In this document: one piece after another, positions 36,001 through 39,000 of the stretch | Layout: the number at the start of each line of letters is the position of its first letter | Position numbering within the stretch: position 1 is the stretch's first letter | Source of the DNA: a virus | Taxonomy: Duplodnaviria; Heunggongvirae; Uroviricota; Caudoviricetes | Virus record (IMG/VR): IMGVR_UViG_2802429217_000003 | Direction: 5' to 3' (one strand) | Length of the DNA stretch: 42,375 bases | Program-made: the position numbers

Positions 36001-39000
36001 GATGATCGTCTCAGTTACCTGGCCGTTTCCTCAATAGCTGTTGGCGAAAAGAATGGCTGGTTCCAGCTTAATCTTCAAATTCCATATCGCGCACTCTAGC
36101 GCAATTAATGACATAGGAGGCTCCTGTGAGTTCAGGTGCAAAGGTTATCTCGGCATTTATCCGGGAGACAGTTGCAGGCACCACGCCAGCAAGTGGTGAC
36201 TGGAGTTTATTAAAACGCACAAGCTGGGGAGTAAAACCCACCCAGAATAAAGGCGAAAATAATGAGATCGGCGGCTCCCGGATGGCTCAGGGGGCAACGC
36301 CTGGCACTGTGGATGTTGGCGGTGATGTTGGTACCAAATTTCGCTGGGGTCAACATGATGATTTTCTTGCATCCTGTTTCGGCGCGGAATGGTCAGGCGA
36401 TTCTCTGACAATGGGAAATGAGCGAATAACATTTTCTCTGGCGACCTATGCGTCCGATGTCGGAATTGCCTCTGTCATCAGAGGAGCGCAGGTGGGGTCA
36501 TGGAAAATGCAGATCCCTAACGATGGTGATATTACGGCGACCGTAACCTTTGCCGGGCTGGACTGGGAATCAAAGGCCGATGATACGAATTTTATCACAG
36601 GCGAACCTGTGGATAGCGCAGGAGAGCTACGTTATTCGTTTAAGGAGGTTTCAGCAGTAAGCCTGAATGGTGTTGCCGGAGGTAACGGTTTTTGTATCGA
36701 CAGTTTTGATATTCAGTTCGATAACAAACTCCAGACTCAGCGTTGTATCGGGACTGGCTCGCCTTATGCAGGAGCAAATATTCCTACTACCTTTACACCG
36801 TCCGGTACGGTGACGCTTTCATGGTCTAAAGCTGCGTGGGAAATCTGGAGTAAAACACTGACTGGAGAAACAGTTCCGTTCAGCTTCACGCTTTCGAATG
36901 GAGAGGGGGCATACACTTTCAGTTTTCCGAAGGTTCAGGTGTCAGGTGAATGGCCTGACGGTGGTAATACCGACATTATCCAGGTTCAACTGAGTATTAC
37001 CGCAGCAGATGAAGCGCCTACGATAACCAGAAAAAAAGCCTCTCCGGCTGCCGTGATCGCAAAAGCCAGTGCTGAGGCGATTAGTTGATTTTCCGTTATT
37101 TCCCCTGTGGTGTTGCACTACAGGGACGTTTTGAATGAGGTTATGGATGTTTATTCTTAATCAGAAAATTATCATCGGTGGAGAACGCTGGTTTACGCCA
37201 ATGAAGGACTTAAAACCTGTAGATGGGTTAAAACTGTTGGTGGCAAGCAGCGATAACGATCAGTATCGCTCCCGTAATGCATTAATCCGTCGTCACATAG
37301 AGAAAATGGATGCCAGTTTGCATGTCGGAACGAAAGAATTTGATATTGCAAAGGTCGACGAGGTGGATTCTGTTGATGATTTACTTATTGATAACGCCGC
37401 TCGTTATTTACTGAAAGACTGGAAAGGGGTTGGTGAACTGGTGGATGGGGTTGAGGTCGCGCTGGAATATACACCAGAGCGAGGGGCCACGCTGCTCAAG
37501 CAGAATCCAGAGTTGTACTGGCAAATTCTTGCTGAAGCCGCCAGCATCGCCCAGGGAAAAGAGCAGCAGAAGCAGGATACGATAAAAAAGCCATAGCCGC
37601 CCAGCGGTGGTTATCGGAGTTCGGGGGCGAAAAGGGGGAAAAGGCAAGGTGGACGAGAGAAAAACTCAGGTTGCCACCGATACAGGAGCCAGAAATAGAC
37701 CCCGTTGTCCGTGAGTTATTGTATGCGTACTCAGTAATGTCTCGTTCCAGGCGTTATGCGGGCATGTCCGGGGTTCCGCTGCCTTTATCAATATCTGACG
37801 TGCACGACTACTTAAAAGCACACCCAATATTGATAGATAGTGATGAATTTGAAGCAGTGATCTTTGCGCTGGATGATCAGTATGTTTCTCAATCCAAAAC
37901 TGTTGATGGGATATTGATTAATTAATTTAATATTTTTTAGTAATTGTCTGAATTACAATGTGCACACATATAGTTTGATGAGAGATTGATAGTTGACTAT
38001 CGAATGTGGTGGATATTTTAATGCTGCCAGCCAGATTAATTCTGGCTGTTATAACAATGATTTGTGAAATGACGGTGATTTTATGAAAAAAGCAGTGTTG
38101 ACTACCATTATCGCTTCAGCCTTGTTTGCAACTGGCATTGCAAATGCTGAATTGAAGCAGAATACTATTTCTCTTGGTTATGCCCAAAGCCATGTTAAAG
38201 CCGGTGGAGAAAGCCTTGATGAGAATCCTTCAGGGGTAAATATTAAGTATCGCTATGAGCTGGATGATAAATGGGGCGTTGCATCTTCATTTACGTACAC
38301 AAATCAAGAATACGATTATTATTTTGCAGGCTCTAAAATTGGAAATGGAGAACTGGATTACTATTCACTAGCTGCCGGTCCAGCCTATCGTTTCAATGAT
38401 TACTTCAGTGCATATGGCTTATTAGGTGTAGCGCATGGACGTGCTGAAGCGACGATTCTGGGATACTCTGACTCTTCAAGCAAGACTTCGGTTGTATATG
38501 GTGCTGGTATTCAGTTTAATCCTGTACCAAATTGGGTAGTTGACGCATCCTATGAGTACACCAAATTGGGCGATGTGAAAGTAGGTACTTGGATGACCGG
38601 TATTGGTTATCGTTTCTGATAATTTCCTTTCCTCTGTTGTCTGGCCCCGCTTATCAAGCGGGGCTTTTTATTTGTCCGGAGTAACTAAATGACAGAGCAA
38701 ACTTCGCGTCTTGCAATAATTATTGATAGCACTGGAGCGAAAAATAATGCTGACAATCTGACCTCCTCCCTAGTCAAAATGACGCAGGCCGGAGAAACTG
38801 CTGCAAATAGCGCAGGGAAAGTGACCAGGGCAACAGAAGATGAGAAGAACGCGCTCGCAAAATTAAAGGCAGCTATTGATCCTGTAGGTGCCGCAATTGA
38901 TACTGTCGGTCGACGCTATTCTGAATTAAAGAAATATTTCGGCAAAGGGCTTATTGATAAAGAAGAATATGAATTTCTTGCCCGTAAACTTAATGAAACT

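Follow-up and report, generated by a model that had tools for sequence, protein, structure and literature searches.

Here we describe a site in the tail assembly chaperone gene of a Rac-like siphovirus prophage of Escherichia coli that very probably functions as a programmed -1 ribosomal frameshift site. The prophage is represented by a 42,375-nucleotide (nt) stretch of DNA (IMG/VR record IMGVR_UViG_2802429217_000003; Caudoviricetes), which is referred to below as the window. The site is a slippery heptamer, A_AAA_AAG, near the end of the chaperone open reading frame (ORF). In the proposed mechanism, most ribosomes would translate positions 37147-37596 and stop, yielding a G-like chaperone of 149 amino acids (aa), whereas a minority would slip back by one base while the single tRNA-Lys of E. 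coli decodes AAA AAG (37585-37590), with the P-site tRNA exchanging one AAA for another and the A-site tRNA exchanging AAG for AAA. The slipped ribosomes would resume at GCC (37590) and read 111 more codons, up to position 37925, to produce a GT-like fusion of 259 aa. By analogy with phage lambda, the G part, common to both products, would coat the tape measure protein, and the scarce T part would bring in the tube protein; how often ribosomes slip would then determine the G:GT ratio. From the evidence below, we infer the ribosomal slippage itself as well as this role in assembly.

A sequence-only reading of this locus had proposed that a -1 frameshift joins the tail chaperone to a T-like extension, and gene order, a PHROG profile match across the junction, and conservation in relatives all argue for that proposal. 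In the chaperone frame, positions 37582-37596 read ATA AAA AAG CCA TAG (Ile-Lys-Lys), in the X_XXY_YYZ phase; as had been noted, the heptamer lies in the zero frame, and the chaperone stop codon begins 4 nt past the last base of the heptamer, with a single CCA codon between them. In the -1 frame, the last upstream stop codon is at 37533, and the frame is open from 37536 to 37922, with a TAA at 37923-37925. The earlier description of a -1 frame open from the heptamer through the ORF at 37671-37925 was therefore correct, and no -1-frame stop codon, which would speak against a fusion, is present between 37590 and 37671. The ORF at 37671-37925 is merely the part of the open -1 frame past the first TTG; the first 27 codons of the T extension (37590-37670) include no possible start codon. 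The predicted fusion via the heptamer (263 aa if counted from the ATG at 37135) reads ...QDTIKK and then AIAAQRWLSEFGG..., and the predicted junction residues for a shift at A_AAA_AAG are ...QDTIKKAIAAQR... and ...QDTIKKAIAAQRW....

The chaperone start is annotated inconsistently: RefSeq/PGAP begins the protein at TTG 37237 (120 aa), and some gene callers begin it at ATG 37135 (153 aa). The homologs, together with a Shine-Dalgarno sequence, GAGG, at 37137-37140, point to ATG 37147 as the start, and the PGAP choice looks too short.

The heptamer sequence as such is not enriched in the window, with 19 copies of AAAAAAG on both strands compared to 17.7 +/- 4.3 expected from shuffles. The 19 sites were filtered by configuration: 100 or more in-phase codons had to be open upstream, the zero frame had to reach a stop within 40 codons, and the -1 frame had to stay open for 60 codons or longer. 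A single site passed, that at 37584-37590. A wider scan of the 39 XXXAAAG sites in the window gave one other pass, TTTAAAG at 33713, which was rejected as a second shift site, being an artefact in which the supposed -1 frame is the capsid gene's own frame.

A tblastn search of phage genomes with the fused protein retrieved 41 records, with E. coli, Salmonella, Klebsiella, Erwinia, Pseudomonas syringae, and Acinetobacter as hosts; 80 further viral contigs were considered, and 89 loci were analyzed. Across the six host genera of the tblastn records, wherever matches to both G and T were present, they were always split into two pieces that lay in different frames. Relative to G, the T ORF is in the -1 frame in 88 of the 89 loci, the exception (L010) carrying two additional single-base deletions in T. 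The homologous shift site is AAAAAAG in 85 of the 89, and A_AAG is in phase in all of them; the other sites are G_GAA_AAG (two Pseudomonas phages), C_GCA_AAG (Erwinia phage Gungnir39), and G_GGA_AAG (Acinetobacter phage AM106). The first A of the heptamer comes from a rare codon, ATA or GTA, which is conserved too. The two-frame layout, the shift site, and the -1 protein sequence that follows it are kept down to about 30% identity, and a protein alignment spanning 27-88% identity shows no change at the shift-site lysine or, just past it, at residues I150, W155, and E158. Around the invariant heptamer, third codon positions vary at 22 of 27 codons upstream and at 25 of 27 downstream, and the zero-frame stop lies 0, 1, 7, 20, 25, 29, or 35 codons past the site, depending on the lineage, while the heptamer remains constant.

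Past the heptamer, purifying selection is seen in the -1 frame and in no other. When 27 distinct enterobacterial sequences were compared over the 27 codons that follow the heptamer, 10, 11, and 25 columns (of 27 each) were variable at -1-frame codon positions 1, 2, and 3, respectively. No -1-frame stop occurs in these codons in any of the 27 sequences, and zero-frame stops are found in 25 of the 26 distinct translations. When compared with diverged relatives, 26 codons show 8-11 synonymous differences in the -1 frame, 3-4 in the zero frame, and 1-2 in the +1 frame. Upstream of the site, the -1 ORF contains no ATG, GTG, or TTG in any locus; the first downstream NTG lies 27-68 codons into the conserved T region, at a position that varies, with the exception of one locus (L072) where a TTG occurs at codon 7. 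The arrangement characteristic of G/GT-type frameshifts is found here, that is, a downstream ORF without a start of its own over the conserved part and a conserved zero-frame slippery site within the overlap. The -1-frame coding signature, the conserved frame relation, and the lack of a start codon jointly exclude an independently initiated N-terminal T, and the same comparative results exclude a recent inactivating indel.

The profile matches are consistent with a single protein encoded across the two frames. The fused protein matches phrog_313, annotated as 'Tail assembly chaperone', with an E value of 3.5e-51 and 175.3 bits, of which the T part adds 15 bits; because 160 of the 175 bits are reached by the G part on its own, this match lends modest support to contiguity. 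More telling is phrog_8233, a 271-position tail assembly chaperone profile that matches in one stretch across the junction (residues 77-243, E value of 6.9e-8). The T part matches phrog_1189, a family of unknown function, with an E value of 4e-31. Its similarity to Phage_TAC_18 (PF23812; 14.6 bits, E value of 0.037, below the 27-bit gathering cut-off), with weak matches in four of six relatives (best E value of 1e-4), is only suggestive of membership. The fused protein has no local Pfam match at an E value of 0.01 or less, and PF27119 is listed for the G part as a precomputed label in the protein database. A search of NCBIfam gave no match, and a PDB sequence profile search gave nothing meaningful.

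The late region has the following gene order. The P22-type capsid, head closure, tail completion, tail terminator, and tail tube genes are followed by the chaperone ORF with its -1 extension, an Ail/Lom gene (lom), the tape measure gene, and a gpM-like gene. This is the V-G-T-H order of lambda apart from the inserted lom gene, and the overlapping pair of ORFs lies between the tube and tape measure genes, as in G/GT systems, with only that one insertion. Frameshifting between G and T is a widely conserved trait of long-tailed phages (Atkins et al. 2016, PMC5009743), and the lambda case, as covered in that review with reference to Levin, Hendrix & Casjens 1993 and to Xu, Hendrix & Duda 2004, 2013, and 2014, has a slip ratio of roughly 1:30 (PMC5009743).

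The window resembles lambda in the order of tube, chaperone, -1 extension, and tape measure; in the size of the two products (149/259 aa compared with 140/279 aa in lambda); in an X_XXA_AAG heptamer read by tRNA-Lys near the end of the upstream ORF, with a downstream ORF that has no start of its own; and in the short overlap of the two frames (61 nt compared with 64 nt). It differs from lambda in the heptamer, which is G_GGA_AAG in lambda and A_AAA_AAG in the window, and in the zero-frame stop, which is 5 codons past the site in lambda and 1 codon past it in the window. The end of lambda T overlaps the start of H, whereas in the window a lom moron and a terminator-like hairpin intervene. The parallel with lambda G/GT drawn by the sequence-only reading thus holds for mechanism and architecture, but does not extend to membership in the same protein family, given that no homology is detectable.

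The same heptamer is used in the same host species by ECs1801/ECs1802 of prophage Sp9 in E. coli O157 Sakai, where AGA AAA AAG TAG is followed by a -1 extension and a downstream tape measure gene, and ECs1801 is listed as cluster A_AAA_AAG_25, a true case, by Sharma et al. (2014, PMC4066793). The proteins are unrelated, with a G of 124 aa and a fusion of 226 aa in Sp9, and the blastp E value of 0.71 ruled out ECs1801 as a homolog of the window chaperone. In RefSeq, ECs_1801 and ECs_1802 (L094 2-681) are separate coding sequences with no slippage join.

A true homolog is YdaY (b1366) of the cryptic Rac prophage of E. coli K-12, whose C-terminal 119 residues are nearly identical to those of the window chaperone. 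K-12 ydaY (L091 1622-2289; NC_000913.3, about 1425621-1426288) has the same ATA AAA AAG CCA TAG cassette followed by an intact -1 ORF of 104 codons, and the prophage occupies the same ttcA site; unlike the window gene, ydaY is N-terminally truncated and adjoins the ParB-like ynaK, and the tape measure gene is a fragment. The K-12 cassette is a relic, because the chaperone is truncated and the tape measure gene fragmentary. In the reference genome, ydaY is labeled 'putative uncharacterized protein' and the -1 ORF is unannotated.

E. coli dnaX has the identical A_AAA_AAG and the same logic of tRNA-Lys slippage (PMC5009743). In dnaX, a Shine-Dalgarno-like element 10 nt upstream and a strong downstream hairpin accompany about 50% shifting, which yields the shorter product (PMC5009743). 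In the window, by contrast, an AGGA tetramer lies 6 nt upstream, no conserved hairpin or Rfam match is found, and shifting would yield the longer product; the combination that marks a dnaX-type stimulated signal, a conserved stem-loop with a Shine-Dalgarno-like element at about 10 nt, is thus not seen.

Four alternatives to this account, or to parts of it, have to be weighed. It is unlikely, but still the best placed of these, that part of the shifting in the window prophage occurs at the second in-phase heptamer, G_GGA_AAA at 37554-37560, which would give a GT isoform with 10 different junction residues (...IAQGKRAAEAGYDKK...; ...GKRAAEAGYDKK...). In the window's clade, this heptamer has the right phase and lies where the -1 frame is open, and reporter values for G_GGA_AAA were 0.12%, 0.51%, and, with a strong stimulator, 17% (Sharma et al. 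2014, PMC4066793). However, it is not conserved: most relatives have GGT AAA at this position, which introduces a -1-frame TAA and leaves an overlap of 37 nt, compared with 61 nt in the window's clade. Furthermore, G_GGA_AAA shifted less than A_AAA_AAG in two of three reporter contexts, the gap being clear where a stimulator was present (PMC4066793), and a fusion at this heptamer fits the PHROG profiles less well (158.6 vs 175.3 bits).

It is very improbable that G and T are independent genes, with a T-like protein initiated at TTG 37671 or later and the heptamer incidental. A separate short ORF is sometimes called (SPF_0923, strain JCKP02, and 13 protein clusters), and phrog_1189 was built from such separately called T ORFs, but these span just 52-82% of the T region and are about 10 times rarer than G calls. 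The 27 codons from the heptamer to TTG 37671, with their -1-frame selection and residues invariant down to about 30% identity, weigh against separate genes because independent initiation would be unable to translate them. The candidate T starts are also found at varying positions, and no properly spaced Shine-Dalgarno sequence precedes TTG 37671.

Transcriptional slippage, in which RNA polymerase would add one A within the A6 run and change the frame in the mRNA, is slightly less probable still, even though one added A would put the T region in frame. Efficient transcriptional slippage requires some 8-9 A or T residues, and six A's yield little. The Erwinia (GCAAAG), Pseudomonas (GGAAAAG), and Acinetobacter (GGGAAAG) relatives keep the -1 layout with only 3-4 A's, and the conserved feature is not the A run but the codon-phased A_AAG, a ribosomal signature; both facts make this explanation unlikely, although slippage on A runs is known in bacteria and insertion sequence (IS) elements (PMC5009743).

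The least probable explanation is a decayed gene or a sequencing artefact, in which one ancestral chaperone gene of a now defective prophage would have been broken by the gain or loss of 1 nt in the A run. Homopolymer runs readily acquire indels, such errors are found in the database entries P0002, P0005, and L010, and an E. coli variant protein (P0001) has G and T fused in frame by a deletion. However, the -1 relation holds in 88 of 89 loci, among them phages from five genera that were isolated and form plaques, as well as 11 complete and nearly identical chromosomes of E. coli; the frame relation is kept where the site has only three or four A's, and purifying selection still acts on G and T alike. 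Two further proteins (P0020 and P0063) carry a terminase-small-like or ParB domain at the N-terminus, fused to the chaperone's C-terminal part in the manner of the K-12 ynaK-ydaY junction; together with P0001 and L010, these look like products of prophage decay or assembly errors.

Elements that could stimulate the programmed frameshift at A_AAA_AAG were sought on both sides of the heptamer. The sequence-only reading had suggested RNA folding as a check for a downstream stimulatory structure, and this check did not yield one. A hairpin is predicted directly 3' of the heptamer, but it is neither significant nor conserved: the surrounding 40 nt fold at about -15 kcal/mol (z = -1.06), 13% of shuffles fold as well, and the hairpin is absent from Klebsiella-type relatives (z of about +1.3). 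From 18 sequences, RNAalifold derived a consensus of -1.87 kcal/mol that showed no covariation, and a double change in one relative (L046) was rejected as a compensatory pair, the changed bases not being pairing partners. An Rfam scan of 37300-38100 at E values up to 10 returned only noise. Upstream, the Shine-Dalgarno-like AGGA is a possible stimulator; it is present in the enterobacterial relatives and missing in Erwinia, and the Gln-Asp/Glu codons CAG GAx also account for it.

Few heptamers in E. coli are as prone to shifting as A_AAA_AAG; its reporter values were 0.29% unaided, 4.3% in combination with the IS911 stimulator, and 39% with that of IS3 (Sharma et al. 2014, PMC4066793). By analogy with these values and with the lambda ratio, the efficiency of slippage at the window site is probably somewhere from a fraction of one percent to a few percent. 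P-site codons differ within the chaperone family, with A_AAA_AAG and G_GGA_AAG at the fully slippery end and C_GCA_AAG (Gungnir39) and G_GAA_AAG (the P. syringae phages) at the non-slippery end. We put forward, tentatively and as less probable than not, the possibility that the family forms a natural series in which A_AAG is the sole conserved element, no stimulatory RNA is conserved, the P-site codon tunes the G:GT ratio, some members rely on single-tRNA slippage, and the window's clade has added the hairpin and G_GGA_AAA.

Several observations weigh against a functional frameshift in a chaperone gene. No protein, ribosome profiling, or reporter data were found in the literature for this locus or its homologs. 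Unaided, A_AAA_AAG shifts at about 0.3% in the reporter (PMC4066793), and a conserved stimulator was not found here: when 37591-37670 in the window and 40 nt past the site in 20 relatives were folded, no shared structure emerged, with z values from -1.95 to +1.4. No local Pfam model matches the G part even at an E value of 1, and there is no similarity to lambda G/T, an hhalign comparison of the family alignment with lambda GT giving a probability of 0.08%. An AlphaFold2 model built from a 32-row alignment (mean pLDDT of 49.3, pTM of 0.34) was too poor for a fold search. We infer the chaperone role from gene order, the PHROG label, and the architecture, and in that architecture the T ORF is set apart from the tape measure gene by lom and the terminator-like hairpin, unlike in lambda.

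The proposed frameshift is absent from the annotations inspected. None of the 8 phage and 3 E. coli chromosome records inspected carries a slippage annotation at the chaperone locus, where the gene goes by 'hypothetical protein' or 'YdaY' and T is either absent or represented by a shortened ORF. Among 133 protein clusters (120 + 13), no properly joined G-T product is represented, and the few full-length proteins (P0001, P0002, P0003, and P0005) arise via deletion or homopolymer errors. No paper linking ydaY to frameshifting was found in the literature. The phenomenon itself is textbook knowledge from lambda G/GT, and A_AAA_AAG is on record in another E. coli prophage chaperone of unrelated sequence; what the inspected records leave unannotated is slippage in the family to which the window chaperone belongs. 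The main value of the site is accordingly in annotation: recognizing the cassette would give ydaY-type genes a function, including in the K-12 reference genome, would add a sequence-unrelated family to the G/GT-type frameshifts, and would mark the slot just downstream of the T ORF for cargo genes (lom, hicAB, and others). The understanding of frameshifting or tail assembly would be unchanged.

Table 1. Features of the frameshift locus and neighboring tail genes in the window
Feature	Coordinates	Strand	Remarks
Tail tube (major tail) protein gene	36126..37088	+	directly upstream of chaperone; PF18906 Phage_tube_2, E 4.7e-32
G-like tail assembly chaperone ORF, 149 aa, zero frame	37147..37596	+	phrog_313; homologs start at Met 37147
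Overlap of both frames, 61 nt	37536..37596	+	-1 frame open 48 nt upstream of heptamer
Second in-phase heptamer G_GGA_AAA within overlap	37554..37560	+	30 nt upstream of main site; window's clade only
AGGA, Shine-Dalgarno-like tetramer	37574..37577	+	6 nt upstream of heptamer
Slippery heptamer A_AAA_AAG, proposed -1 shift site	37584..37590	+	zero frame AT[A AAA AAG]
T-like extension in -1 frame, 111 codons + TAA	37590..37925	+	phrog_1189 match
Predicted hairpin directly 3' of heptamer, CCAUAGCCGCC-CAGC-GGUGGUUAU.CGG	37591..37617	+	clade-specific, not significant
Ail/Lom outer-membrane protein gene (moron)	38083..38619	+	Pfam PF06316, E 2.9e-27; phrog_108
Tail length tape measure protein gene	38689..41922	+	TMP_2 E 5.8e-81; Tape_meas_lam_C; phrog_24 1087 bits

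The genes that flank the chaperone locus are listed in Table 1. The product of the upstream gene is labeled 'phage tail tube protein' in RefSeq, and the tape measure protein is the presumed client of the chaperone. The lom gene is outside the frameshift device, but it breaks the usual G-T-H adjacency. Similarity to relatives without lom stops at about position 37888, within the last 12 codons of T, and the C-terminus of T thus differs, ending in ...QYVSQSKTVDGILIN in the window and in ...QYFQEQCV in those relatives. The guanine-plus-cytosine content drops to about 30% at 37800-38100, upstream of lom, and the terminator-like hairpin, with a 10-bp stem, is located at 38643-38665, just before the start of the tape measure gene.

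Other genes occupy the same position in several relatives. Between T and the tape measure gene, Acinetobacter phage AM106 (L008 2252-3493) encodes a HicA/HicB toxin-antitoxin pair and an outer membrane protein, Klebsiella phage ST11-VIM1phi8.2 (L004 2404-3364) has three small genes, including those for zinc-ribbon proteins, and phiPSA1 (L006 832-1173) has one gene of unknown type. This slot looks like a hotspot of moron insertion.

The window is 99.9% identical, over a 1-kb query, to E. coli chromosomes, such as that of E21845/O/A, and constitutes a full-length Rac-like prophage that adjoins ttcA and carries intR, xisR, ralR, recET, kilR, and sieB. A stretch matching the window is found in about 1070 of 5426 complete E. 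coli genomes. The strains that carry this prophage appear to be type II enterotoxigenic E. coli, and toxin genes are located at 19702-20993 and 22770-23907 of the window: an AB5 subtilase/pertussis-like pair, made up of eplA and its binding subunit, and, next to the lysis genes, an enterotoxin A/B pair. This toxin content agrees with Jobling's account of LT-II prophages (PMC5917428). In the RefSeq annotation of a near-identical chromosome, an ead/Ea22-like gene is flagged as frameshifted and a small ORF as containing an internal stop (window positions 16034-16451 and 24093-24362).

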